Source of the DNA: Candidatus Rifleibacteriota bacterium
Lineage (GTDB): Bacteria > Muiribacteriota > Ozemobacteria > Ozemobacterales > Ozemobacteraceae
Reading direction: 5' to 3'
NCBI GenBank assembly: GCA_012520995.1
Contig: JAAYNI010000010.1
Coordinates: forward strand, 7,671 to 71,670
DNA length: 64,000 nt
Position 1 is the first letter of the stretch. The number at the start of each line of letters is the position of its first letter. The notes beneath the pieces were generated by a model. It searched no databases and was not told where the DNA came from. It worked only from the letters and a program-made list of their open reading frames with translations. A program made the translations under genes and the position numbers. Positions 996-64,000 of the stretch are shown here, piece after piece.

Positions 996-2990
996 CTAAC
1001 GTTCCACGAGCTTGAACTTCACATTCCCTTCGTAAAGATCTATATTTCTGGGTTTAACAAGAATGTGATCTCCTACCGAAACATCAAAATTAGGCTTAGG
1101 GGCTTTTCTGAAAGAGCATAGCTCTGGCGAATAAAACATCACTTCGGCACCGATTTGCACCACTTCTCCATGCAAAACGAAGTTTTTATCTTTTTCTAGC
1201 TGCTGCTCCAAATATTTTAAAATCCAATAGGTTTCACGGCTTTTTGCTACCTGAATAGCCCTTCTTTCGGAAATTCCGGAAAGCGTCATCAAATGTTCAA
1301 ATTCATTTTGCTCATATGCAGGCAAACCGTCTTTTAAATAAGCTTTTACCTGTCTGTGCAAAAGCAGATTTGAATATTTGCGCAAAGGAGATGTAAACTG
1401 GGTATAAGGATCCAAGCCAATAGAAGCGTGAAGCCCTGGTTTATCTGAGAAAAGCGTTTTCGGAGAGTTGATTATAAAGTTCCACAAGGCAGCTGCAGAA
1501 AAGTCTTGAGAGGTTTCAACAGAAGATTCTTCGTTTGCTTTTTGTACTCTGTAGCGACAAGGCAAGTTCCTTTCGCTTATCCACTTTGCAGCCAGATGAT
1601 TTGCCCAAATCATAAATTCAGCAATCATTTTCTCAGCAACTCCGTCCGGATTCGAATAAGAAAGTTCTACTGTTCCGCATTCTTTTATTGAGATTTCCAA
1701 ATCAGGTCTTTCCGGAAACTCCGAAGAACCCGATTCTTTTCGCTTTTGACGCAATGCAGATGCTACAAAAGAGGCTGTTTTAAGCTCTGGAGTCTCATCC
1801 ATGAGGCTATTAGCTTCTGAATAGGAACAAGCCTTAAAAAGGCTTATAAGCGAAGAAAATATTTCGAAAGAAAGCAACTCAAAAGTTTCGCTCAGTTCCA
1901 AAACCAAGGTTATAGCTGGACAATCCCTGCCTTCCGCAAAACCTGCCAACTCAGTTACAAAAGTATCGGGAAACATGCTAATAGTCTCATCCGCCATATA
2001 GATCGAAGTGGCTCTCACACAGGCTTCCTTATCTAAGGGAGAACCTGGCAAAGCAAACTCGGCAGGATCCGCCAAGTGAATATACAAACGATATTTGTCT
2101 TCGTCTTTCACAATAGCAAAGGCGTCATCTCTGTCTCGTGTATTTTCGCAATCTATCGCCCAAGAGGAAAGATATCGCAAATCTTCTCTGTCAGAGAAAT
2201 CTCTGGACTTTGCCAATTCTTCATCGGCAGATATCAATACATCTTCTGGAAATTCAGATTCTATGCCTTCTCTCAATTTTTCTATGTTAGCATCGGGAGG
2301 AAAAACTCCGGCAGAAATCAATGCTTCAAAAAGCAAATCCGGTTTTCCCAAACCTGCTCTAGAGAGGGCTGACTGCAGTTTGTCTGAAATATTGAAGTTT
2401 TCTGTTTTCAGAGCATATTTTTTCATTTCCGGCAGCCGTTCTTGAAGCTTATCTGAAAGAGCATGATTTTGTTTCAGGTCTGCTAAAGCTTCAGCAAGCT
2501 CTTCTGCAGCTTTCTGTGCAGCAGCTTGTTTTTCCAGCATAAGGCTCATTTCTTTAAACTCTTCTTCTGAAGCAGGTTTAAATGTAAAATCTTTGGTTTT
2601 GAAATAGAGATTGTCTTTCAGCAAAGCTCTCAACAAAGCCGCTATTTCATCATAATCTTCTTCGCCATACAAATAGGCAGCAATTTCTTCAGCTTCATAA
2701 AAACGCTCTTCCTCTAGCAATAGCTCACGAAGTTCAGCCAAATCTATCTCTTCAGAGAGCTTTTCTCTTATTTCGTCTTTTTCCACAAGAAGAGCCTTGG
2801 AACTCTCAATATCAGCAATATTGGCCAAAGCTTTTGAAGTAACCGAAAAAAGCTTGCGGCCTTTTATGTTTATTTCCTTGCCGTTCTTAAGAAGCAATCT
2901 GACATTTGGCTCAACCGCGGACATTATCGCGCCTATTTCGTATTTCTTTCCATTAATAAACTCGGCAATTGCACCGGATCTAAGTATCAA
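996..2990 (-). CDS. RNase II/R family 3'-5' exoribonuclease (RNB domain)
   Basis: Contains the RNB catalytic motif IDCENTRDRDDAFAIV (DxxxxxDxDD). The N-terminus is cold-shock-like and the C-terminus is basic and S1-like (HILVKPRNIDLYEGNVKFKL). The start is a TTG overlapping the upstream stop (TTGA), which indicates translational coupling. Confidence 0.8.
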   Translation of the reverse strand: MILRSGAIAEFINGKKYEIGAIMSAVEPNVRLLLKNGKEINIKGRKLFSVTSKALANIADIESSKALLVEKDEIREKLSEEIDLAELRELLLEEERFYEAEEIAAYLYGEEDYDEIAALLRALLKDNLYFKTKDFTFKPASEEEFKEMSLMLEKQAAAQKAAEELAEALADLKQNHALSDKLQERLPEMKKYALKTENFNISDKLQSALSRAGLGKPDLLFEALISAGVFPPDANIEKLREGIESEFPEDVLISADEELAKSRDFSDREDLRYLSSWAIDCENTRDRDDAFAIVKDEDKYRLYIHLADPAEFALPGSPLDKEACVRATSIYMADETISMFPDTFVTELAGFAEGRDCPAITLVLELSETFELLSFEIFSSLISLFKACSYSEANSLMDETPELKTASFVASALRQKRKESGSSEFPERPDLEISIKECGTVELSYSNPDGVAEKMIAEFMIWANHLAAKWISERNLPCRYRVQKANEESSVETSQDFSAAALWNFIINSPKTLFSDKPGLHASIGLDPYTQFTSPLRKYSNLLLHRQVKAYLKDGLPAYEQNEFEHLMTLSGISERRAIQVAKSRETYWILKYLEQQLEKDKNFVLHGEVVQIGAEVMFYSPELCSFRKAPKPNFDVSVGDHILVKPRNIDLYEGNVKFKLVER

Positions 2991-4715: not shown

Positions 4716-4866
4716 TTCTATCCACAGATTACACAGATGAATGCTGTCGCACAGTGAGTAGGGCGTAGGGGAGGCTGTCCGAAAACTCGTTTTTAGCTAA
4801 GCTCCAAAATATGTAAAATTAGACTCCGCTTTTTTTAAAAAATCCAGTTTTTGGGCAGCCTCCCCT
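4716..4866. repeat. intergenic repeat cluster: DnaA-box-like motif (reverse-complemented), partial G-tract motif and a 10-bp long-range inverted repeat
   Basis: 4716-4731 reads ttctatccacagatta, the reverse complement of TAATCTGTGGATAGAA. 4759-4775 reads tagggcgtaggggagg. ggggaggctg at 4768-4777 pairs with cagcctcccc at 4857-4866. Confidence 0.35.
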
Positions 4867-7866: not shown

Positions 7867-8748
7867 ATGCGCGCTCATAAAACATATAAACTAATTTCCA
7901 TACCAGCAGCATTGCTGCTAATGATATCACTCTTCTTAGCTTCACCTGTTCTTGCGGTGAATATGATAACTGGAATATCACCAGACGAAATTATAGTATC
8001 AACAAAACCTCCTGTTACCGGAAAAATAGCGGATGCGCATGTCAGACTTATTGAGTTCATGCTTCAGACACGTATGACTATAGCTCAAAAGCTTGTGCTG
8101 TTCAGAGGAATGAATGCCGAGTGTCCTAACATGACACCGGAAGAGTTCGCCGACTTTGCTTCCGCTCCTGAATTGCTCCAAGGAATAAGCGAAATCATAG
8201 ATTCTGAAATCGAAGCCGTACGTCGAATGCTTCTGGAAGAATACATACAGGCTGCCTTGGACTCCCCCGATGATCAAGTAGCAAAAGTTTTTGTACAGCT
8301 CAACAGAGATGACGACAGAAAACTCATAGTTCGCGAAGACCTAAACATAACCTACCAAGCAGCTAATGCTTTTATTGAATACTTGGCTTTTCTCGCAAAT
8401 CCTGATGCTCCAAAATGGTACAACGAAAAAGATGCCGAATCTATAAGAATGCGTCTACAAGTTGGCTTTGCAGGCTTCTCTGAAGATGAGCAGTATGCTC
8501 TGGAAGACTTTGAACTCTCTTGGTTCTTAATAAGAGCCGCATGGCAAGACCCTGCCAACCAGAACTTCAAAAATGCTTGGAGAAAAGAATTTTCCTCTGT
8601 GAATATAATTCCCGGAAGACTTCCTTCGCCTGCCCAGCTCCGCAAAGCCCTTTCAATTGACATATACTCAGACCTCTTAGACAGAGCGGTAATGTCAGGA
8701 GTGGACCCCATTGAATTTTCTATGACTTCCAAAAGGATGGTCTGGTAA
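7867..8748 (+). CDS. secreted hypothetical protein
   Basis: Strong RBS and an N-terminal signal peptide (LLLMISLFLASPVLAVN). No family recognised. Confidence 0.6.
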   Translation: MRAHKTYKLISIPAALLLMISLFLASPVLAVNMITGISPDEIIVSTKPPVTGKIADAHVRLIEFMLQTRMTIAQKLVLFRGMNAECPNMTPEEFADFASAPELLQGISEIIDSEIEAVRRMLLEEYIQAALDSPDDQVAKVFVQLNRDDDRKLIVREDLNITYQAANAFIEYLAFLANPDAPKWYNEKDAESIRMRLQVGFAGFSEDEQYALEDFELSWFLIRAAWQDPANQNFKNAWRKEFSSVNIIPGRLPSPAQLRKALSIDIYSDLLDRAVMSGVDPIEFSMTSKRMVW

Positions 8749-16663: not shown

Positions 16664-16765
16664 AAACAGTGGGCAGTGATCAGTGCACCGTGGGCAGAGA
16701 GAACAACGGACAGGACTATTTTGTTCTAAACAATTTCACTGTCCACTATCCACCATCCACTGCAC
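16664..16765. repeat. post-stop-codon intergenic repeat (family shared with 63809-63875)
   Basis: aaaaacagtgggcagtgatcagtgc...ttgttctaaacaatt begins immediately after the TAA of the pilin gene. The related sequence aaaaacagtggtcagtgg...ttgtttagaac follows the TAA at 63808. It contains the hairpin ggacag...ctgtcc. Confidence 0.3.
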
Positions 16766-16841
16766 ACTGAATTTATATTGGCATTTGTTGAAAATTTAAT
16801 TATAATTATTATGTAGAGATGTACAGAAAAAGGAAAGCCGC

Positions 16842-18467
16842 ATGAAAAAAACAATCAGCATAATGCTCTTTTTAGCTTTAATGCTCTTTAATACATATAA
16901 TTATTATCTTTGGGCAGACGAAATCCCTCCCTCATATAAAGAAGGAGAAACTCAAGAAACAACTCCTCCTGCTCAACAAGAGGGAGAAAAAGATGAAAAC
17001 CAAGAAGGGGAGACACAGCCGCCAGAAGATATAACACCTCCCCCCACTCCCGTCACCCCGCCTAAACCTCCAAAACCGCCTCTGACACCCGAACAAGAGA
17101 TTTTTGAAGAATATGGAGTTATCTTCAAATCTGAATCAAAGATTCTCTCTTGGGATACTTCTAAAGTTCAAGCTATAAAAGAAGTTCTTGAATCTGTGCC
17201 CAAAAGCTTTTCATCTTCCACGAAAGTCTTCTATCTTCTCTCCACTTACGAACAATTCGAAATCAAATACAATGGCTTTAATCGCGAATTTGGAGTGGTT
17301 CAATTTGGAGCAGGGGCTCTTGAAGCCTCAAGACCTTACAATATAAAGTTTAAAAATGTCTATGGCTCAGAACCATCCACCACGGACTTGATAAACAGAT
17401 TTAAGGCCATGGCCGCAAGAGGCATGACCTATGCTTATCTCCAAGAAAACCCAGAAATCCCCAGAAAATACAGAGGAGTTCTGAAAAACAGAAACTTCTC
17501 TGAAGTTACCAAGCTTTATGGGCCAGCACAAGAAACCTATATGGTTGTAGCTCCCGGCAAAGACGATATGTGGATAGACTTGGCCTTCGCTGTTGAGATG
17601 TATTTAACAAATCAGGGCGAGCTTAGCTCAATTTGCCCGGAAAGAGCCAAATTTGTAAAAGAAGAAATTTTCGGAGGGGAAACAGTCAAGACTTGGCCAT
17701 ATAAACCTTTACATAAAAAAATAGACCAACCCTCTGTCAATCCCGATCCAAATCCCGATCCAAATCCCGATCCTAATCCCGATCCTAATCCCGATCCAAA
17801 TCCCGATCCTAATCCCAATCCTAATCCCGATCCTAATCCCGATCCTAATCCCGATCCTAATCCCAATCCTAATCCCGATCCTAATCCTAATCCCGATCCT
17901 AATCCCAATCCCAATCCTAATCCCTCTCAAGGCAGCAGATATGTTTTGGAACCATTAAACACAAACAATCCTGGTCCTCCCGTAGAAGAGGAACAAGATG
18001 GGCAACCCTATATTCCTGAAATAGCTGTAATTCAGCAAGGAGGAGCGCTAGACTTGCCTGGAGGCATGAATGAAGCAATAATCGATCTCTGTAAACAGCT
18101 GAATGTTTCTTTCAGCGGCTCAACCGCTGCAATCGGCTATTTAACAACCATTGACACAAAAGATGCCTTTTCACGTGAAAGCTACATATTTGTAACCCAG
18201 AATTCTTGGCATCCATTCTTAGACTCTGAGCGCACAAAAAGATTCCAAGAGATTCTCTTGAGAGAAATGGCTTTCAGATATGCTTATCACAAGGCAGATG
18301 TACTTATAAAGTGGAAACGAGACTTTTCTATGGCCAACGACTATGATGCAATTAACAGTTTTGCAGAAACGGTAATAATGTACATGAACGCTCCTGGACA
18401 TCTGCAAACAATAAACGAAGATCGTTATAAGTTCCTGACAAATGAAGTTAAGCTGAAAAGACCCTGA
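16842..18467 (+). CDS. secreted protein with a Pro-rich N-terminal region and a central (NPDP)n repeat linker
   Basis: Signal peptide MKKTISIMLFLALMLF. Residues 300-360 are almost pure DPNPDPNP... repeats. The flanking domains are unrecognised. Confidence 0.65.
   Translation: MKKTISIMLFLALMLFNTYNYYLWADEIPPSYKEGETQETTPPAQQEGEKDENQEGETQPPEDITPPPTPVTPPKPPKPPLTPEQEIFEEYGVIFKSESKILSWDTSKVQAIKEVLESVPKSFSSSTKVFYLLSTYEQFEIKYNGFNREFGVVQFGAGALEASRPYNIKFKNVYGSEPSTTDLINRFKAMAARGMTYAYLQENPEIPRKYRGVLKNRNFSEVTKLYGPAQETYMVVAPGKDDMWIDLAFAVEMYLTNQGELSSICPERAKFVKEEIFGGETVKTWPYKPLHKKIDQPSVNPDPNPDPNPDPNPDPNPDPNPDPNPNPNPDPNPDPNPDPNPNPNPDPNPNPDPNPNPNPNPSQGSRYVLEPLNTNNPGPPVEEEQDGQPYIPEIAVIQQGGALDLPGGMNEAIIDLCKQLNVSFSGSTAAIGYLTTIDTKDAFSRESYIFVTQNSWHPFLDSERTKRFQEILLREMAFRYAYHKADVLIKWKRDFSMANDYDAINSFAETVIMYMNAPGHLQTINEDRYKFLTNEVKLKRP
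17738..17923 (+). repeat. perfect or near-perfect hexanucleotide tandem repeat (aatccc / gatccw / aatcct), about 31 units, in frame within the 16842 CDS
   Basis: Read directly from the sequence. The units encode the N-P and D-P dipeptides. Confidence 0.9.
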
Positions 18468-18618: not shown

Positions 18619-18687
18619 TTGTTCTAAGGGTTTCTTTTAAGAATAAGAATTTATTATCTACAGGCTGAACAAAGCACTAAGCTTTTC

Positions 18688-33921: not shown

Positions 33922-35442
33922 TTATAAATTAATGGGTTTATATTGTTCAAAAAGTTTTTTGTCGAAGGCTCTCATGTAGGCTTCAACAGGAGCTATTCTC
34001 CTTTGCTTGACCAAGTCCATCAAAGACTGATCCATCGTTTGCATTCCTTGTTGCTTGCTGGTTTGCATAATTGAGTTCAGCTGATATGTTTTATTGTCTC
34101 TGATACAGTTTGCAACCGCAGGAATGTTTATAAGTATTTCCAAAGCTGCGACTCGGGAAGATCCGTCAAGAGCAGGAATCAACTGCTGAGCTAAAATAGC
34201 ATTTAGCGAATCAGCTAGTTGAGTTCTTATTTGGCTCTGCTGACTTCCCGGGAAAACGTCTACTATTCTTTCAATTGACTGAGGCGCAGAAGGGGTGTGC
34301 AAAGTAGCAAAAACTAGGTGTCCAGTCTCAGCTGCCGTTACAGTCAAAGCTATAGTTTCAAAGTCACGCATTTCGCCCACCAATATTACGTCAGGGTCTT
34401 CGCGCAAGGAAGCTCTTAGAGCATTGCTAAAGTTTTTGGTAGTGCTTCCTACTTCACGCTGACTAACCAAACATTTATTATGAGAATGCACAAACTCAAT
34501 CGGATGCTCAATAGTTATTATATGCTCCTGACGTTCTTTATTAATCAGATCAATCATAGCTGCAAGAGTAGTGGATTTGCCTGAACCTGTCGGACCTGTT
34601 ACAAGCATAAGTCCCTTTTTCCTTCGGGTCAAATCTGCCAGCACAGGAGGCATGCCAAGTTCCTGCAGACTCTTTATTATGTTAGGAATAACTCTGAAAA
34701 CTGCGCCTAAGCCCAACCGCGTGTAAAAAACATTACAGCGAAAGCGTGCCAAGCCATGAATTTCATAAGCCATATCGAGCTCAAGAGTATCTTCCAGTTC
34801 TTCTTTCTGTTCGTTTGTCAAAAAGTTAAAAAGCATTCCTTTAACGTCTGAATCATTCATCACAGGCAAGTCTGTTGCCCAAAGCTTGCCTTGCAAACGA
34901 AGCATAGGAGGAGCGCCAACCGCTATGTGCAAGTCGGAACCGGCTTCAGCGACTACCATCTGCAAAAGATCGTCAATAGTTACTACGGCTTCGCCTCCGC
35001 TGGCACCGTCTTTCTCTGCACCGTAGGTAACGTTGCTTTTACCATCTAAAACCTTGCGAGTGCTAAGAGCAGAGGAGCCTCCCGCACGTCTTGCAGGAGC
35101 CTGTATGGTCGGATAGCCCTGAGCCGTTGCAGGTCTTGCAGGAGCCTGTATGGTCGGATAGCCCTGAGCCGTTGCAGGTCTTGCGGGTTGCAATGGTCTT
35201 CCCGCTTGAGCCGGCATAGGTCTATTAGGAGCAGCAGCAGCCGGTCTTGCGCCTTGAGAAGGAACAGAAGTTGCCGGCGCAGGTCTTCTAGGCGTTATAC
35301 TCTGCGGAGCCAAATTAGCAAGGTCATCAAAATTTGGCGTTGCCTGTATGGCTGGTCTCTGCTGCGAGTTCGCCTGTACATCCGTTTGGGGATCTTTTCT
35401 TTCTTCCTTCGAACCGAAGAATTTTCCTATAATATTATCCAT
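33922..35442 (-). CDS. pilT: type IV pilus retraction ATPase PilT with a roughly 180-aa Pro/Ala-rich N-terminal extension
   Basis: Walker A GPTGSGKSTT, LHTPSAPQSIERIVD, and the PilT-specific ...NCIRDNKTYQLNSIMQTSKQQGMQTMDQSL. The N-terminal 180 aa are low complexity. Confidence 0.8.
   Translation of the reverse strand: MDNIIGKFFGSKEERKDPQTDVQANSQQRPAIQATPNFDDLANLAPQSITPRRPAPATSVPSQGARPAAAAPNRPMPAQAGRPLQPARPATAQGYPTIQAPARPATAQGYPTIQAPARRAGGSSALSTRKVLDGKSNVTYGAEKDGASGGEAVVTIDDLLQMVVAEAGSDLHIAVGAPPMLRLQGKLWATDLPVMNDSDVKGMLFNFLTNEQKEELEDTLELDMAYEIHGLARFRCNVFYTRLGLGAVFRVIPNIIKSLQELGMPPVLADLTRRKKGLMLVTGPTGSGKSTTLAAMIDLINKERQEHIITIEHPIEFVHSHNKCLVSQREVGSTTKNFSNALRASLREDPDVILVGEMRDFETIALTVTAAETGHLVFATLHTPSAPQSIERIVDVFPGSQQSQIRTQLADSLNAILAQQLIPALDGSSRVAALEILINIPAVANCIRDNKTYQLNSIMQTSKQQGMQTMDQSLMDLVKQRRIAPVEAYMRAFDKKLFEQYKPINL
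35089..35178. repeat. exact 45-bp tandem duplication (2 units) inside the pilT N-terminal extension
   Basis: The unit tcttgcaggagcctgtatggtcggatagccctgagccgttgcagg occurs twice with 100% identity and encodes PATAQGYPTIQAPAR twice. Confidence 0.9.
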
Positions 35443-37659: not shown

Positions 37660-38385
37660 ATGTTATCTTCAGCTACTAAAATGAAAAGCAATAATCAAAA
37701 TATAGGCGGCATAGCCGTCGAAATTATAAAAAAGAAAAAACTGAAAAATCTCTATATCAGAATTGTCCCACCTGACGGCAAAGTAAGAGTAACTGCTCCT
37801 ATAAAGTTTCCAGACAAAGAAATAAAACTATTAATTTTAAGAAAACTGCAACGCATAAACGCTGCCAGAGAATGTATAATAGCCCAATCACGACAAACTG
37901 AACGAGAATATACTTCTGGAGAAATCCATTATCTATGGGGCAACCCCTATGTATTAGAAGTCATAAATGGACAAAGAACATACCAATTAGAATTAGAAAA
38001 AGAACTCTGCAGAATCATATTCAAAGTGCCTGCAAATGCTACTAAAGAATCCAAAGAGAAAGCCTTCAACAACTGGTACAGACAAAAGCTTAAAAGAGCT
38101 ATAGACTCCTTGGCAAAGCAAATTGAGGAAAAAATGGGCATATCAGCAAACGAGTATCATGTGAAAAACATGAAAACCAGATGGGGAACCTGCAACATCA
38201 CCAAACGAAGAATCTGGATTAACCTGCAACTTGCTAAAAAGCCTATAGAATGCCTTGAATATATAATCACTCACGAACTGGCTCACTTGCTGGAGAAGAA
38301 TCACAATAAAGGATTTTATACCATTGTCGAAAAGTTTTGTCCGACATGGAAAGAAGCCGAAAAAAAGCTGAAACAACTTAACTAG
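37660..38385 (+). CDS. YgjP/DUF45-family (M48-like, SprT-like) metal-dependent hydrolase
   Basis: C-terminal WGTC...ITHELAHLLEKNH (HExxH) pattern typical of DUF45. Confidence 0.7.
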   Translation: MLSSATKMKSNNQNIGGIAVEIIKKKKLKNLYIRIVPPDGKVRVTAPIKFPDKEIKLLILRKLQRINAARECIIAQSRQTEREYTSGEIHYLWGNPYVLEVINGQRTYQLELEKELCRIIFKVPANATKESKEKAFNNWYRQKLKRAIDSLAKQIEEKMGISANEYHVKNMKTRWGTCNITKRRIWINLQLAKKPIECLEYIITHELAHLLEKNHNKGFYTIVEKFCPTWKEAEKKLKQLN

Positions 38386-38686
38386 TGCTTTGTTTTGTCT
38401 AAAACTTCTCTATTCAATGACAAGCAGTCAACATGGACTATTCATGGTTATTTGATGCAACAATCGCACTAGAGGGAGTAGGAGATAGAAAGGGCAAAAC
38501 CCAAGACACAGGCAGAAACTGCAGAAAAGACTAAAAGATTTATTTCTAATTTATACTTTATAATTTCTAATTTAATTAAACTCGCCGCCCGCCACGCACC
38601 ACTCAGCACAGTGCGATCTTATAAGCGGATATTGTCCTGTGAATTTTGAAAGGCTGACAGGAAAGTTTTAGATATTACAAAGCACT
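38385..38686. mobile_element. MITE-like non-autonomous element (copy A) with 23-bp imperfect terminal inverted repeats flanked by TA
   Basis: The left end is TA-gtgctttgttttgtctaaaactt; the right end is aagttttagatattacaaagcac-TA (20 of 23 match). It exactly fills the interval between the stop codons of two convergent genes. The interior carries modules shared with 40856-40925, 57467-57655 and 61427-61775. Confidence 0.5.
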
Positions 38687-39173
38687 AAAAGTAGTTCAAG
38701 TCTTCGCGTTTTACTTTGGAAAAAATATAAGTCGAAGACTGATCGGTAATCAGCAAGAAAATGCCTGCAAGAAATTTGTATTCCACAATATAGGAATCTC
38801 CTTTATCGGGAAAAAAACGCAAAGCGTTTTCAGAGAGCAACTCATAATAACCTGATTCTGGCAAAGCCTTGTAATCAACTTTCTTGTTCTTAAAAAAGGT
38901 CAAGGAATAACTTCTATCTTCTTTAAGGGATAAAACAGGATAATTTCCTTCCTCGTTTGGGCTTATTACATAGACATAAGTTCCAGAATCGATATTGTCT
39001 TCTTTTTCCAGTAAATGCCATTCACCCAGAAGATTAAGAAAGAGGGCTCTGTCAACTTCTTCAGCTCCATCAGCTGCAAAAGGCAAGAAGGAAGTAAAAA
39101 CAAGCAAAACAGAAATAAAAAGAGAAAATATTTTTATCCGCACAAAATCCTCCAAGCACCTTTTTAAGCACAA
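38685..39173 (-). CDS. secreted hypothetical protein
   Basis: 162 aa with a signal peptide (FSLFISVLLVFTSFLPFAADGAEE). Confidence 0.5.
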   Translation of the reverse strand: MCLKRCLEDFVRIKIFSLFISVLLVFTSFLPFAADGAEEVDRALFLNLLGEWHLLEKEDNIDSGTYVYVISPNEEGNYPVLSLKEDRSYSLTFFKNKKVDYKALPESGYYELLSENALRFFPDKGDSYIVEYKFLAGIFLLITDQSSTYIFSKVKREDLNYF

Positions 39174-40855: not shown

Positions 40856-40925
40856 ATTAGTGGCGGGTGGGAGTGGCGAGTTTAACTAAATTAGAAATTA
40901 TAAAGTATAAATTAGAAATGAATGT
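40856..40925. repeat. partial copy (copy C) of the MITE-like family: the internal module only
   Basis: tagtggcgggtgggagtggcgagtttaactaaattagaaattataaagtataaattagaaatgaat is nearly identical to the reverse complement of 38541-38607. Confidence 0.6.
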
Positions 40926-41243
40926 TTAGACTCAATTGCTAAATTGATAATTTCTCTAAGGTGCTAATAAATCATCGTTTAAAAGAAAGCAATTTGAGCA
41001 AAAACCATCTTAGTTTTTGCGGAGTCGATCATTCAAAGCAATACAGAGCAAATTTATTTGCTCTTTCTGGCGATTGTTAGAGATAAAGCGACATTAGATT
41101 CTATAGAAGATAATGTTATGTTCGTTTGCTTCTTAATCTGTGGATAGAACGGCTGTTCCAGATGTTTTAGCAGCTTTTCCGTGCATTCTGTGTGTTCTGT
41201 GGTTCCAAAAGGTTTTTAGTTCGTGTTTTCGTGTGGTTCGTGG

Positions 41244-47243: not shown

Positions 47244-47316
47244 GCAAGATTAACTCAATTGGTAGAGTGTCACCCTTCCAAGGTGAAAGTTGCGGGTTCG
47301 AGTCCCGTATCTTGCT
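47244..47316 (+). tRNA. tRNA-Gly (anticodon TCC)
   Basis: Folded by hand. The acceptor stem is gcaagat/atcttgc; the D-stem is actc/gagt with the loop aattggta. The anticodon stem is tcacc/ggtga with loop cTTCCaa, and the T-arm is gcggg-ttcgagt-cccgt. The discriminator is U and no CCA is encoded. Confidence 0.85.
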
Positions 47317-47519
47317 CTTTTTTATTTTAGAAAAGCCAGAAAAAATTCCAAACCCCTCTTTGAAACCACAGAACACACGGAAAAATTCCAAAACCTTTCT
47401 ACCCACCATCCACTACCCACAACCCACTGCTTTTCAGCCGTACACTTCCTAATTTCATGTCAAACTGCTATAATTAAAGAAAGATCTCACCTTTTATAAG
47501 GATTACAAGGAGCAAACCC

Positions 47520-49259: not shown

Positions 49260-49264
49260 GAACA

Positions 49265-49289
49265 GGGAGTAGGGGTTAGGGCGTAGGGG
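49265..49289 (+). repeat. G-quadruplex-capable motif GGGAGTAGGGGTTAGGGCGTAGGGG (recurring intergenic motif)
   Basis: Four G3-4 tracts with 3-4-nt loops begin 6 nt after the stop codon. A close copy lies on the opposite strand at 57624-57653, and partial copies at 4759-4775 and 38472-38495. Confidence 0.5.
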
Positions 49290-49330
49290 ATAGCGAAGAC
49301 CCAATACCCAGGACAAAAAGCACAAAAAAA

Positions 49331-54537: not shown

Positions 54538-55923
54538 ATGACATCCACAACAAAAGTTGGCATAATGACCCTTCTGGTAACAACACTGCTCGTATATTTG
54601 GTATTCGTAATAGGCGACTACAGCTTCAAAGAAAAGGGTTACTCATTTACAATCAGTTTTTACGCAGTAAACGGCCTCAGCCGCGGCTCAAGGGTCTCTA
54701 TTTCCGGGGTCAACATAGGCAAGGTCGAAGACATAAACATAGTGGATGACCAAGTATACGTTCTTGTCTCAATTCAAGATAAAAAATATCACATCAGACG
54801 AAAAAACACTTTTACTATATCCTCGGCAGGCCTTATGGGTGAAAAATTTGTAGAAATAGTTCCTACAAGAGACTATACCTCGCCATATGTTGCTCCTGGA
54901 GAAGTAGTTCCTGGAACCGACCCAACCAGAATGGAAGAGCTCTTTGAAAGAGGAAATGCCCTGATTCACCGATTACAGGAAGTTACAGACGCGGCAAAAG
55001 ATCTCCTTGGCGATCCCTCCATCAAAGAAAACGCCAAGCTGTTGGTGCAAAACGCAAAAGATGCTTCTGTAAATATTTCCGAGATAACCGCTTCATTAAA
55101 AAGCAAGACCGACAGCATTGCAGATAATCTTGTAAGACTGCTGGATAACCTCTCAACTGAGATCGAAGGTAATAAAATTGCTATAAAAGAACTTATAGCC
55201 AACTTCCGAGATCTCAGTGAAAAGCTAAACGGCATGACAGGCGAAAACAGAGAGAATATAAAAGAAATAGTAACCAGCGTCAAAGGAGCCGTCAGCAATC
55301 TGGAGAAAATTCTGGAAGACTTGAGCAAAAACAACGATATGAGCGGCGATATCAAGAAAACTGCCGAAGCTCTCAGGAAAACTGCTGAAAACACAGAAGA
55401 AATAACTGCTGAATTGAAAAAAAACATCAATGACCCTGAAATAAGATCGAAAGTTTCGGGAACTCTGAAGGATGTCAACAAGATTGCTTCAACTGCTGAT
55501 AAAATCTTTACAGGATTTAAAGAGACGCAATTCAATTTCAAATATCATCTGAGGTATTTTGAACCTACTGATGATATTCTCTCAGACATAAATCTGGATA
55601 TGCTTAAGAGCAATGATTCTTTCTTCAGAATAGGAATCGAAGACATAGGAAACGAAAACGATTTTACATTCATGTTCGGACAAAAAACCAATAAACCCAA
55701 GCTCACGTCAAGAGCTGGCATATTAGCTTCTAAAATAGCTCTTGGAGCTGATTATCAAGCCACTGACAAAATACTTTTCAGCGTAGACATGATAGACACC
55801 AAAGACTTTGACATAAGACTCACTGCAGATTACAAGGTTGACGACCATATGAACTTTAAAGTCAGAATGGATGAAACGCTGAAAGACCAAAATCTGAGTT
55901 TCGGGTTAGAATACACTTTCTAG
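54538..55923 (+). CDS. mlaD: MCE-domain protein (MlaD-like) with a long coiled-coil C-terminal region
   Basis: N-terminal TM segment plus an MCE domain (FTISFYAVNGLSRGSRVSISGVNIGKVEDI). Confidence 0.75.
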   Translation: MTSTTKVGIMTLLVTTLLVYLVFVIGDYSFKEKGYSFTISFYAVNGLSRGSRVSISGVNIGKVEDINIVDDQVYVLVSIQDKKYHIRRKNTFTISSAGLMGEKFVEIVPTRDYTSPYVAPGEVVPGTDPTRMEELFERGNALIHRLQEVTDAAKDLLGDPSIKENAKLLVQNAKDASVNISEITASLKSKTDSIADNLVRLLDNLSTEIEGNKIAIKELIANFRDLSEKLNGMTGENRENIKEIVTSVKGAVSNLEKILEDLSKNNDMSGDIKKTAEALRKTAENTEEITAELKKNINDPEIRSKVSGTLKDVNKIASTADKIFTGFKETQFNFKYHLRYFEPTDDILSDINLDMLKSNDSFFRIGIEDIGNENDFTFMFGQKTNKPKLTSRAGILASKIALGADYQATDKILFSVDMIDTKDFDIRLTADYKVDDHMNFKVRMDETLKDQNLSFGLEYTF

Positions 55924-55974
55924 TGCAACGTAACATCTAAAACTTTTTTCCTGAATTTAATACTATATGCCATA

Positions 55975-56036
55975 ACACATTTTCCTTTCTCCTTCACGAA
56001 AGGGGAAATATTGTCGGAAAATGTGTTACCTTTTTG
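55975..56036 (+). terminator. candidate rho-independent terminator of the mla operon (long compound hairpin)
   Basis: aacacattttcc...ggaaaatgtgtt forms a 12-bp stem around the inner hairpin ccttcacgaaagg, followed by TTTTT. Confidence 0.4.
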
Positions 56037-56439
56037 GGGTCCGGATCATATAAGTATTATCAAGATTTGTTTTTTCAGAGCTTCAGCTGTTTAGCAGGCA
56101 TAGCAATTATTATGTCAAGCAATTGACTGCTTTGAGATGCTGGCAAATAGTTGTATCCTTGGATTGAGAGATGTCATCGAATGAATATTCCGAATATTTT
56201 GAGGCAAAAACCGATAGTAAATGAATTCTTCAAAGAGAATTCATTTATGGACAAGCCGCAGGTTAAGAACAGAGATTTACAAGTTTACTTGTGAAATCTC
56301 TGTCTTAAGCTGAGACTGAGCAAAAGCAGACATGCTTTTGCGAGATTTTTGGTCTTTATCGGTCCTTTATCTGTGTTAATCTGTGTTAATCTGTGGATAG
56401 AAATATAAATATATAAAAATTCAAGGAAAGATAATAAAA

Positions 56440-57468
56440 ATGAAAGAGAGCAAACCTAAGATTTTGCTGGTAACTACTGGCGGAACGATATCAATGCAAA
56501 AATCCGAAGACGGAACTTTTTTGCCAAGCAACAGCAGCGATTCTCAGCAGCTGACAGCTTCTATACCTGAGCTTAATGAACTCGCCGCAATAGACATCTT
56601 GCAGCTGGCAAACATCGACTCGACCAATCTGCAACCGGAACTCTGGGCTAAAATAGCTCAAACAATCTACAAGAACTATAAAAACTATGAGGGCTTTGTT
56701 TTGGCTCACGGAACAGATACTCTCGCCTATACTGCTTCCGCTCTGTCTTTTATGATACAGGAACTGGGAAAACCTATAGCCATTACCGGTTCTCAGGTTC
56801 CACTCATGCAAATAGGCTCAGACGGCAGAAACAATCTGATTAATGCAGTCAGGGTCGCTATTTCAGATATAGCAGAAGTAGCAGTGGTTTTTGGCTCAAC
56901 TATCATAAAAGGCTCCCGAGCAAAAAAGGTTTCAGCATTTGATATGGAAGCTTTCTCTTCAGTCAATGACGCAGAAATGGGCAAAATAGGCCTATCGCTT
57001 AAATTTTCCAAAGGCACACAATACAGAAGCAAGAAAAAGCCTATTCTTAGGACTGAATTGGAAACCAACATTGCTATGCTCCCTGTTTATCCGGGAATCA
57101 AACCCGAGGTAATAGACTTTTTGGCAGAAACTCACAAGGGAATCGTCCTTGAAGGATACGGCGCAGGCAACATACCAACAGGCGAATTCGGTATTGACTT
57201 GGCTGTCAAAAGAGCTATTGACAAGGGCGTGCCCGTAGTAATTTGCACTCAATGCGTTATAGGCTCAACTGAAATGGAACTATATCAAGTCGGCAGATCC
57301 GCATTAGATGCAGGCGCTATACCGGCAATGGACATGACGCCTGAATCGGCTTTCGTCAAACTTATGTGGGTTATGGCTCAAACAAAGGATTTAAGCAGTA
57401 TTGCAGCCATGATGCAGAAAAACTTTGCAGGGGAAGTCCACGAACTGGGCGGCCTATATGACATCTAG
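56440..57468 (+). CDS. ansA: L-asparaginase, type I-like
   Basis: N-terminus KILLVTTGGTISMQ (the TGGTIA motif). It has a second conserved block (HGTDT) and length 342 aa. Confidence 0.85.
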   Translation: MKESKPKILLVTTGGTISMQKSEDGTFLPSNSSDSQQLTASIPELNELAAIDILQLANIDSTNLQPELWAKIAQTIYKNYKNYEGFVLAHGTDTLAYTASALSFMIQELGKPIAITGSQVPLMQIGSDGRNNLINAVRVAISDIAEVAVVFGSTIIKGSRAKKVSAFDMEAFSSVNDAEMGKIGLSLKFSKGTQYRSKKKPILRTELETNIAMLPVYPGIKPEVIDFLAETHKGIVLEGYGAGNIPTGEFGIDLAVKRAIDKGVPVVICTQCVIGSTEMELYQVGRSALDAGAIPAMDMTPESAFVKLMWVMAQTKDLSSIAAMMQKNFAGEVHELGGLYDI

Positions 57469-57655
57469 CGCTTTGTTTTGTCTAAAACTTTCCTGTAAGC
57501 CTTTCAAAATATCCGCTTATAAGATCGCGCCGTGATGAGTGGTGCGTGGCGAGTGCGAGCTTTAATAGTGTAAAATATAGGGTGTAAAGTGTAAAAATAA
57601 ATACTCGGTTTTTCTATCCTTTCCACACCCTACGCCCTAATCCCCACTCCCTGAT
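57467..57655. mobile_element. MITE-like family copy B, inverted relative to copy A, filling the gap between convergent stop codons
   Basis: It starts at the ansA TAG with TA-gcgctttgttttgtctaaaactttcctgtaagcctttcaaaat...ccgcttataagatcgc...gagtggtgcgtggcgag, which matches the reverse complement of 38580-38686. The 3' part contains the C-rich complement of the G4 motif (57624-57653). Confidence 0.5.
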
Positions 57656-57657
57656 GT

Positions 57658-58875
57658 TCACAGTGTGAGCGGCGCCTCGCTTAAAACCTGTGTCAATATC
57701 TTGCCTAGAACCTTTTTTTCAAAAGGACGGGACTCTTCACTCATGTTAAAACGTTCTCTCAAAGCCAATCTTCTAAGAGTTTCCGTAAAAGGGCTCTTGC
57801 CCGTACTCATTTTAGCGGTATATTTCGCCAAAAATTCCAAGGAATCCTCACAAGAAATAAATGGATCTGAACCCAGAGAAGCATTCAAAAAGTTGTCTGC
57901 AACTATAACGCTATGAAGCACAAAATCATTAGGCAAAGGCGGCAATGAATGATGTTCCGTTATAGACAACTCTATAAAATGAGGCAGATTTAAAGTATCT
58001 GAGAACATCTTTCCCGCTTCTATATGATTAAAAGCGAATATTTTATTCTCCGCTTCCAAGGAAGACAAACCAGCCGAATATCTGTTGTTTGAAGCAGTAT
58101 CATAATTTTTTGGAGCATAATCGGCCAAAAGCAAAGAACCTATATCATGAAGCAAACCGGCTGAAGCAGAAAGCCACCTCTGAGATTTATCTGAAACTGC
58201 CAGCATGGCAATAGTCTCACAAAGCAAAGAGCAATTTTTCATGTGCAGCAATTTTATAGAAGCTTCTTCAAATACATCTTCAAGCATTTTGAAGAGTTCA
58301 AAAACAAGCACGTAAGCAATGCCCTCGCCGCCTACAAAAGCCGCCGCTTTACTTAATGAATCATACGGCTCTTCTTTTGCTTCATTTGACTCATTTGCAA
58401 GCTCCAGAATTTTCATAGCAATTCTATGGTCGCCTGACAAAGCCGCCAAGGCATCTTTGATATTTGCCGGATCGTTTCTGAGAACTTTAAAAGCGGAAAA
58501 TATTTTTGATTGCATAAAAGGCAAACTTTTAAAATTATCTATGCCCGCCTTTACGCCTTTAAAAGTCGCAATACTTAAAAGAGCCTCATCTACGTCTTTG
58601 TAGAGAGGCAACTTGAATATTTTTTGCGGTATTTGCATTTGTCTTGTGAGCACTGCCTTCAGTTTTTTAAAACCAGGGTGCTCTACAAGCGCATCTTTCA
58701 CAGAAACTGGCAATATTCCGTTGGGCTGCAAAACCAAAACTACGAAATCATATTTATTCAAAGCGGTTTTAAGCAATGAAAAACTTTGGCTTGATGCGTG
58801 CATCATTTCATTTACACGCAGTTCCAAAATATTTCCGTCATGAAGCTTTATTTCAAAACCGCTATTGTTATGCAC
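57658..58875 (-). CDS. HDOD-domain signalling protein
   Basis: ...SASAGLLHDIGSLLL... HDOD signature in the C-terminal half. Confidence 0.55.
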   Translation of the reverse strand: MHNNSGFEIKLHDGNILELRVNEMMHASSQSFSLLKTALNKYDFVVLVLQPNGILPVSVKDALVEHPGFKKLKAVLTRQMQIPQKIFKLPLYKDVDEALLSIATFKGVKAGIDNFKSLPFMQSKIFSAFKVLRNDPANIKDALAALSGDHRIAMKILELANESNEAKEEPYDSLSKAAAFVGGEGIAYVLVFELFKMLEDVFEEASIKLLHMKNCSLLCETIAMLAVSDKSQRWLSASAGLLHDIGSLLLADYAPKNYDTASNNRYSAGLSSLEAENKIFAFNHIEAGKMFSDTLNLPHFIELSITEHHSLPPLPNDFVLHSVIVADNFLNASLGSDPFISCEDSLEFLAKYTAKMSTGKSPFTETLRRLALRERFNMSEESRPFEKKVLGKILTQVLSEAPLTL

Positions 58876-61278: not shown

Positions 61279-61426
61279 TAGCATCTCTCTTCTTTATAAT
61301 TCACAACTTATTTTCTCTATTTTCTTCTTTATTAACGCTCCTTCTTCTAGGAGCGTTTTTTCTTTCATTATTTTTATCACTCTATCTGCCGATACATCCA
61401 AAGCTACTAATATGAAATACACTAGT

Positions 61427-61775
61427 GCTTTGTTCCAGATAAAACTTTCTTTTGAAAGACATCTTGCTCAACAATAAATCATAGTTGGCAGCTGCTAAGA
61501 TCGCACTGTGGCGAGTGGCTAATGCTGAGTGGCGGGTTGAATTGATTAGCTCCCCTCTTGCATCGCTCATCACTATCTGTCCTTAAATCAGAGGCAAGGA
61601 CAAAAATTGTGATTATGCTGTAGCAGAATGCAATTTTTGACCATTTTTGCCCTCATTTGTGTGAATCTGTGTCCATCTATGGATAATAAATTCTTCATTC
61701 TAAAAGAAACTTTTAAGCGCAACAGTCTACTAGTGCGAGTTTTAATAATGTAAAAATGTAAAGTGTAAAAGTGCA
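61427..61775. mobile_element. MITE-like family copy D (composite or degenerate) upstream of the lptD-like gene
   Basis: The left end is TA-gtgctttgttccagataaaacttt. Internal taagatcgcactgtggcgagtgg...gagtggcgggttg and terminal agtgcgagttttaataatgtaaaaatgtaaagtgtaaaagtg match segments of copies A and B. It includes atctatggataat, a variant of the DnaA-box-like motif. Confidence 0.4.
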
Positions 61776-63808: not shown

Positions 63809-63875
63809 AAAACAGTGGTCAGTGGAATTGTTTAGAACTCAATTAGTAAAACTGATAACTGCTTTGAGATATTAA
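63809..63875. repeat. post-stop-codon intergenic repeat related to 16664-16765 and to 56130-56160
   Basis: aaaaacagtggtcagtgg...ttgtttagaac...actgctttgagat. The last motif is also found at 56141-56153. Confidence 0.3.
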
Positions 63876-64000
63876 TAAATAACCCTTATTTATCTTTCTG
63901 CGGTTTCGTATATTTGTTCCTCTATAATGTTTGGGCGTTTGATTCCTTCTCCTTCTCAGATCTTCTTGCATTTTGGATTTTTAGATTTAAGGCAAAAAGT

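Follow-up and report, generated by a model that had tools for sequence, protein, structure and literature searches.

The window, by which we mean the whole 64-kb stretch of DNA that was analysed, has a GC content of 41% and is ~92% coding according to our own ORF calls. In it a YgjP/M48-like ORF (37660-38385) faces an ORF on the minus strand (38685-39173), and the region that joins them, 38383-38687 (copy A), is bounded by two 25-nt arms (38383-38407 and 38663-38687) that face each other 255 nt apart and are complementary at 22/25 positions (88%). TA is present on both flanks (aacTA/GTGC...GCAC/TAaaag, slashes marking the element ends). The left TAG (38383-38385) is the stop codon of the YgjP/M48-like ORF, and the right CTA (38685-38687), read on the minus strand, is the TAG that ends the facing ORF. 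Thus, the original prediction of inverted repeats with TA flanks that exactly bridge two convergent stop codons is confirmed at copy A.

What had been taken for a single element is, however, a mini-MITE of 85 bp followed directly by a truncated R-type element of ~215 bp, and BLAST divides copy A between them at position 90/91. The mini-MITE (L type) has its terminus, TIR1, at 38383-38407 (+), where TA 38383-38384 is the target duplication, and its 85-bp body (GTGC...GCAC) occupies 38385-38469 (+), the right end (38447-38469) being a degenerate inverted version of the terminus. In the BLAST comparison all 90 nt of 38383-38472 recur with 100% identity at an unrelated locus (L052, 4261-4350), and the L-type unit recurs in L057 and L060, where its boundary is always GCAC/TAG. 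A CTAG at 38469-38472 is common to both elements. The R-type element fills 38473-38685 on the minus strand, with its TIR1 at 38663-38687 (-) contributing the CTA (38685-38687) that is the stop of the minus-strand ORF; over 38473-38687 it is 92-93% identical to R-type copies at two other loci (L064, 93% over 216 nt; L068, 92% over 215 nt). This R-type piece retains TIR1, a subterminal block, a GC-rich block (38581-38633), an AT-rich block (38534-38580) and a G-rich block (38473-38502), and is without ~105 nt, the second terminus included.

The terminus and the element types

The terminus is a 25-nt sequence, TAGYGCTTTGT-N6-TAAAACTT (also written TAGTGCTTTGT-N6-TAAAACTT), of which the two blocks, TAGYGCTTTGT and TAAAACTT, are invariant across copies and the spacer is variable. 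It has five matches in the window, at 38383 (+), 38687 (-), 55921 (+, with 3 mismatches), 57466 (+) and 61423 (+), against 0.05 expected, and none of 100 shuffled sequences reaches five. The YgjP-like protein and the asparaginase of the window are identical to proteins that NCBI assigns to MAGs of Candidatus Riflebacteria, and metagenome contigs from biogas fermenters encode them too, one of which, a 118-kb ENA contig, spans the window. Scanning JGI metagenome contigs with the 25-nt terminus retrieved 31 stretches, 20 of which come from two biogas samples and have 38-43% GC, matching the GC content of the window; one of these two samples also holds the window's YgjP locus, and the biogas loci are assigned to the window's genome by GC content and common repeats only. 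Together, the window and the JGI biogas contigs of 38-43% GC contain at least 24 distinct terminus sites with unrelated upstream flanks, a count that is a lower bound since the JGI scan missed a contig (L035) that bears copy A. When 185,579 species genomes were scanned with the terminus, 33 matches emerged, mostly in Planctomycetota and none in a Riflebacteria genome.

Four sequence types follow the terminus, namely R, L, D and a fourth that begins ttctatccacag, and at that end they have nothing but the terminus in common. Unit lengths are 85 bp for L, ~326 bp for R (the length of the copies in L054, L056, L064 and L068), ~310 bp for D and ~480 bp for the type found at 55921, and within none of these units is there an ORF of at least 50 aa that fits a gene. 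A recognisable pair of termini is present in a minority of copies only: inverted termini are clear in the composite 38383-38687 (22/25) and in L068, units of the L, R and D types have a degenerate second terminus (strongly diverged in R and D), and none is present in copy B, in the copy at 55921 or in any of the fragments. In R-type copies the diverged second terminus (e.g. AACATTTTAGCTGTTATACAGCACTA) is followed by G, giving CTAG at both junctions. TA on both sides is likewise seen in L057, L054, L064 and L068, and elements abut at a common CTAG at 38469, at 61730, in L052 and in L067.

The fourth type is represented in the window by an element of ~480 bp (55921-56402, +) with one terminus, whose TAG is the MlaD stop and which occupies the 516-nt gap between the MlaD gene and ansA; it matches L047 in inverted orientation, with 100% identity over 100 nt and 84% over 193 nt. 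Copy B (57466-57656, +) is an R-type copy with a 12-nt internal deletion that lies between ansA and an HDOD gene. As predicted, its terminus at 57466 gives the TAG stop of the asparaginase ORF (ansA, 56440-57468), but it has only this one terminus and ends in a G4-capable G-rich block (57628-57651), 2 nt ahead of the HDOD stop. From an alignment of R-type copies we considered that copy B could reach as far as the CTAG at 57704-57707 and thereby encode the last 16 HDOD residues. Copy D had been predicted at 61427-61775 and consists of a D-type element at 61423-61732 (+), whose TIR1 is intact and whose second terminus (61710-61732), which ends CTA/G, is degenerate; a separate AT-rich fragment (61733-61774, +) adjoins it at CTAG. 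The element is intergenic and lies downstream of a terminator-like hairpin; the fragment extends to the start codon of an LptD-like gene and, on direct reading of the sequence, resembles the AT-rich block of copy B.

The remaining traces in the window are degenerate or partial. The stretch 40856-40925, proposed as a further copy, turned out to be an internal R-type fragment comprising the GC-rich and AT-rich blocks (40860-40924, -; 89% over 70 nt to 38534-38603), positioned upstream of a Na/Ca-exchanger gene, with no terminus across 40856-40927. A degenerate element (836-998, -) sits in a gap between convergent genes, and its terminus (974-998, -), with 5 mismatches, gives the TAG stop of the ORF 996-2990 (-). 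Half a terminus, ACAAAGCACTA, with a subterminal block in common with copy D is found at 18624-18679 (-). Two fragments are without a terminus, one with a TCTGTG-type block and part of a G-rich block in a convergent-gene gap (4716-4771, +) and the other internal to the D type and beginning 4 nt past a stop codon (63812-63885, +). A solo G-rich block (49262-49293, +) directly follows a stop codon and includes one of the only two canonical G4 motifs in the 64 kb, 49265-49289; the other is the block of copy B, and both are in the same module. The expectation that the copies carry a G4 motif is therefore upheld for copy B and for the block at 49265 but fails for copy A, the version of which is not G4-capable.

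Comparing the window with itself bore out that the copies have internal modules in common in differing orientations: 38534-38586 matches 40875-40927 in inverted orientation (53 nt, 94%), 38575-38633 matches 57508-57566 (59 nt, 83%) and 38574-38626 and 61491-61543 carry a common module. Of the 13 intergenic gaps above 150 nt, 12 contain repeat modules, and ~41% of the window's non-coding DNA falls in the stretches that we masked as carrying repeats. Given this abundance and the varied order and orientation of modules that are often free of a terminus, the mosaic might be thought to consist of REP/BIME-like extragenic modules spread by recombination or by a RAYT-type enzyme, the inverted termini being incidental. 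We regard this as barely credible, because conservation in every element type is highest in precisely the 25-bp terminus, a homologue of the IS630 inverted repeats, because element boundaries are exact at TA, and because no short palindromic, GC-rich REP units were seen.

Probable mobility and IS630-type insertion sequences

Support for insertion comes from the MlaD-ansA site. The spacer between these genes, which begins with the terminus in the window and measures 516 nt there, is 15, 35 and 12 nt long in three related but distant Riflebacteria (63-65% asparaginase identity), in all of which the gene order MlaE-ABC-MlaD-ansA is kept. The MlaD C-terminus, EYxF followed by the stop, is conserved, with the stop being TAA or TGA in the relatives and TA plus the element's G in the window. 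The case that would speak for conserved regulatory DNA, that is the same segments at orthologous positions in related genomes, was not seen. Among near-identical strains no site was found filled in one and empty in another: the contigs that encode the exact YgjP and ansA proteins all had the same insertions. For copy A a synteny test is of no use, since the YgjP homologues are Firmicutes-like and at most 66% identical.

The empty site also bears on the idea that selection maintains the repeats in place, as immobile and conserved signals that act in cis at the 3' ends of genes at the RNA or DNA level (terminators, mRNA stabilisers or sRNA genes). It is true that the termini mostly abut stop codons, that the 305-nt region folds better than shuffled sequences (z = -3.4, on both strands), and that an inward-facing promoter-like sequence, TTCACA-N16-TAAGAT, is present next to the terminus in R-type copies. 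The favourable fold of copy A is, however, its two termini pairing, and 11 aligned R-type copies yield no consensus structure (-1.3 kcal/mol, with a covariation term of -0.02), so that the folding check recommended with the original prediction returns a fold for copy A without a structure common to the R type. Moreover, the elements have no Rfam match, whether at gathering score or at E<=1, they contain no terminator-like site, related genomes are without the sequence at the orthologous MlaD-ansA site, and the same terminus ends insertion sequences that encode a transposase. A role of the elements as suppliers of terminators or RNA structures, as had been suggested, thus finds no backing, and selection in place appears very unlikely as an explanation for the family. 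The promoter-like sequence may be a relic of the promoter of a parent transposase.

The nature of such a parent is indicated by complete insertion sequences that bear the terminus and occur in other phyla. In L003 the terminus bounds a complete insertion sequence of 1227 bp (cTA/GTGC...GCAC/TAg), the ends of which read gggacTA/GTGCTTTGTCACATCTAAAACTT...AAAATTAAGCTGTGACAAAGCAC/TAgac with the repeats GTGCTTTGTCACATCTAAAACTT and GTGCTTTGTCACAGCTTAATTTT. Its ORFs encode HTH_32/HTH_29 and DDE_3 domains and are joined at an A-rich, slippery-looking site; two further copies of a similar insertion sequence with the same terminus are present in L073. The L003-type transposase has >7,900 homologues at E<=1e-40 from many phyla, and those that are named are IS630 family transposases (NCBI). 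Among the 120 best of these homologues, most of which are without an organism name, there is no Riflebacteria-named transposase. A tblastn search with an IS630 transposase gave no match in the window, and neither the 64 kb of the window nor 164 kb of the biogas loci yielded an autonomous IS630 copy; IS630-type transposases with matching inverted repeats were found in L003 and L073, in other phyla. The window's elements have only the termini in common with those insertion sequences, and perhaps a further ~15 nt inward of the second terminus; the resemblance of the insertion sequences' 3' ends to this second MITE terminus is only suggestive. Two other loci, L069 and L071, resemble insertion sequences with a very similar terminus and stop ~90-150 nt inside them.

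The junctions deserve closer consideration, since they distinguish between two insertion sequence families. G follows TA in 5/5 window matches, with mismatches allowed, and the base preceding TA varies, being C in 21/24 copies and T in 3/24. As the G is constant and the preceding base is not, the G is part of the element and the C is part of the flank. The elements could nonetheless be derived from an IS5-family insertion sequence with a 4-bp CTAG/YTAR duplication, the element proper starting at TGC, since the junctions mostly read CTAG on both sides and an IS5-related MITE duplicating CTAG or YTAA is known in Pseudomonas syringae (PMC3189936). We consider such an origin most unlikely: the constant G and the variable base before TA argue against it, as do the flanks of 38383-38687, which are CTAG and CTAA and thus have only TA duplicated, and the complete insertion sequences with the terminus encode IS630-family DDE_3/HTH transposases rather than those of IS5. 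IS630-family elements are known to move by cut and paste into TA, duplicating it (PMC2170065), and IS630 prefers a TA inside CTAG (Tenzen and Ohtsubo, 1991, as cited in PMC2170065). The C that precedes TA in 21/24 copies is this reported CTAG preference.

The dispersed loci, the IS630-matching termini, the TA flanks and the empty MlaD-ansA site all agree with the predicted non-autonomous element of IS630/Tc1 type with TA duplication. Very probably, then, the repeats in this Candidatus Riflebacteria genome from biogas reactors are MITEs of the IS630/Tc1-mariner type, namely DNA transposons that are not autonomous. By analogy with the family, an IS630-family DDE transposase acting in trans would bind the bipartite 25-bp terminus (GTGCTTTGT and TAAAACTT around the spacer), excise the element and paste it into TA, preferably as C-TA-G/A, with duplication of the TA. 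Insertion into CTAG would regenerate CTAG at both junctions, and later insertions would then land at these element ends. Such end-insertions, combined with deletions, could generate the abutting, nested and truncated mosaics.

Placement at stop codons

The most interesting property of the family is its exact placement at stop codons. At 15/24 termini the terminus TAG closes an ORF of 91-604 codons, where 11-15% would be expected by a crude estimate that relates the window's non-coding TA or C-TA sites to TAA/TAG stops in our own ORF calls, an excess with P of ~1e-7 to 1e-9. The termini do not use the other two reading frames as ORF ends, and 9/24 are not at ORF ends. In the window, a terminus makes five of the eight TAG stops. 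At 38383-38687 and in L057 each of the two ends provides the stop of one of a pair of convergent genes, and the far end of the L064 element closes a 710-codon ORF. Among the termini found in other phyla, at most ~25% lie at ORF ends. We dropped the notion that the terminus is a recoding or termination signal, because 9/24 termini lie off ORF ends and the same terminus bounds transposase genes.

The sequence of the element ends could underlie this placement. An element that begins with G and ends with C would, upon insertion into the TA of a TAA or TAG codon, rebuild an in-place TAG for the upstream gene, and where convergent genes have a common TA, within CTAG or CTAA, the duplication would hand each gene its own TAG. 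For copy A, the empty site would have read aacTAaaag, with the overlapping convergent stops on one TA being separated by the duplication. Proteins would be unchanged by such insertions, which would help to explain why most surviving copies begin at stops and fill gaps. The bias may arise either from targeting or from the survival of harmless insertions in a compact genome. It is conceivable, though we think it unlikely on balance, that the placement exceeds survivorship and reflects an active preference for stop TAs, especially overlapping convergent stops, as a safe harbour in a genome that is 92% coding, with the G...C ends being adapted to rebuild TAG on both sides. If that preference is real, transposition would have created five of the window's eight TAG stops, and the lineage would owe its intergenic DNA chiefly to these elements; were the bias indeed due to targeting, the family would serve as a model for safe-harbour transposition and as a possible basis for a tool that tags genes at their 3' ends. 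In any case, it is a clean example from nature of how stop codons, even those common to convergent genes, can take up a TA-duplicating element with G/C ends while the proteins stay unaltered.

Known miniature elements

A MITE family of several types is new for Riflebacteria, but it is no new kind of system. Stop codons receive no mention in a 2024 review of prokaryotic MITEs (PMC10969869), and no described mobile elements of this candidate phylum were found in the literature. The closest system in concept is RUP, a MITE of Streptococcus pneumoniae derived from IS630-Spn1 that has no transposase, inserts at TA and is present in many intergenic copies (PMC2229807); RUP also clusters with, and inserts into, other repeats (PMC10969869). 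The elements described here are like RUP in being small, transposase-less and intergenic, in residing at TA sites and in having termini that resemble those of an IS630-family insertion sequence. They differ from it in the unrelated sequence of the terminus and in the host phylum, Riflebacteria, in comprising several subfamilies of 85 to ~480 bp where RUP is one 107-bp unit, and in that most termini overlap stop codons and the genome has not yet yielded a cognate insertion sequence.

Correia elements (NEMIS/CREE) of Neisseria duplicate TA, are short, have terminal inverted repeats and come in more than one size class, as is the case here. We know of no parent insertion sequence for them, whereas the IS630 link is direct for the window's elements, and to our knowledge stop-codon placement is not a described feature of Correia elements. 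Their transcripts form end-to-end stem-loops (PMC2229807). MITEPsy1 of Pseudomonas syringae is likewise a miniature element at CTAG or YTAA (PMC3189936), but it has a 4-bp duplication and is IS5-like, whereas only TA is duplicated in our elements and their terminus is of the IS630 family. As for the full-length relatives IS630 and ISY100, the inverted repeats of which are bound by an N-terminal HTH domain that accompanies a DDE catalytic domain (PMC2170065), the TA duplication and the CTAG preference are the same and L003 and L073 are full members with the window's terminus; the window's elements, unlike these, are 85-480 bp long and have no transposase ORF.

For an uncultured candidate phylum, the analysis provides a family of repeats together with the clade to which its transposase is likely to belong. 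It also accounts for the breaks at gene ends in short-read assemblies of this organism: short-read contigs stop 26 nt past the YgjP stop, just beyond the terminus.

Genes adjoining the MITEs

The transposase-less, IS630/Tc1-type elements (MITEs) of the window end in a 25-nt, TA-flanked terminus whose TAG often serves as the stop codon of a gene, as it does for the YgjP/M48-like gene (37660-38385, plus strand) at the MITE beginning at 38383. Besides an identical Riflebacteria protein, all named homologues of this gene come from Firmicutes, at no more than 66% identity, whereas at a similar identity level those of the asparaginase gene (ansA, 56440-57468) are mostly from Riflebacteria. The YgjP/M48-like gene may have been acquired horizontally.

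The asparaginase itself terminates at the TAG of the MITE at 57466-57656, and its C-terminus (57440-57468) reads HELGGLYDI*; the asparaginases of three related Riflebacteria stop 5-6 residues earlier, in HEVE*, HEVV* or HEVS*. On the other side of this MITE, the final ~16 codons of the HDOD ORF (57658-57710 of 57658-58875) show a loose alignment with the hairpin-and-TCTGTG region of full-length R-type elements, the MITE kind of ~326 nt with a diverged second terminus. The same stretch contains a CTAG (57704-57707). The C-terminus of the HDOD gene may thus have originated from an element.

The terminus and repeat beyond the window

The same terminus (TAGTGCTTTGTCAAACCTAAAACTTGGGGTGCCACTGGC...) is carried by a different short element in the Planctomycetota MAG OTE_75, present there in at least six copies (stored loci L001, L004, L005, L020, L025 and L030), and these short elements are an independent MITE burst of the same IS630 clade. 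Short-read contigs of the Rifleibacteriota organism (L038, L041, L042 and L076-L079) terminate either 26 nt past the stop codon of the YgjP-like gene or no more than tens of nucleotides from ansA; the repeat is a break point of short-read assemblies of this organism.

Motif content in and outside the MITEs

CTAG is about 4-fold under-represented in the window, occurring 54 times where base composition predicts 233, and MITE junctions account for five of the 10 non-coding occurrences. Only two canonical G-quadruplex motifs (49265-49289 and 57628-57651) are found in the 64 kb, against 0.135 expected; both lie within one G-rich repeat module and each starts a few nucleotides 3' of a stop codon.

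Motifs of the TCTGTG(T/G) type, such as ttctgtgtgttctgtggtt and atctgtgtccatctatggata, form arrays at 41186-41209, 47359-47382, 56369-56402, 61655-61690 and 4716-4739. Some of these arrays are within MITEs, adjoining the second terminus, and others are solitary, often directly 5' of gene starts; they could represent a binding-site or promoter module. GC-rich blocks with periodic AGTGG/CCACT motifs form an inverted pair flanking an AT-rich core at 16.7 kb (16667-16697 and 16737-16769) and recur at 47399-47429, and the GC-rich module of the MITEs is built of blocks resembling them.

tRNA calls and tandem repeats

ARAGORN calls a minus-strand tRNA-Asn with anticodon ATT at 8496-8565, which is probably a false positive, the sole tRNA from an Rfam gathering scan of the window being tRNA-Gly (47244-47316). 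About 20 tandem copies of the 12-nt unit AATCCCGATCCW (17691-17960) lie in frame with ORF 16842-18467 on the plus strand and encode NPDP tetrapeptide repeats, and a minus-strand ORF holds a 45-nt tandem duplication, 98% identical, at 35084-35173.
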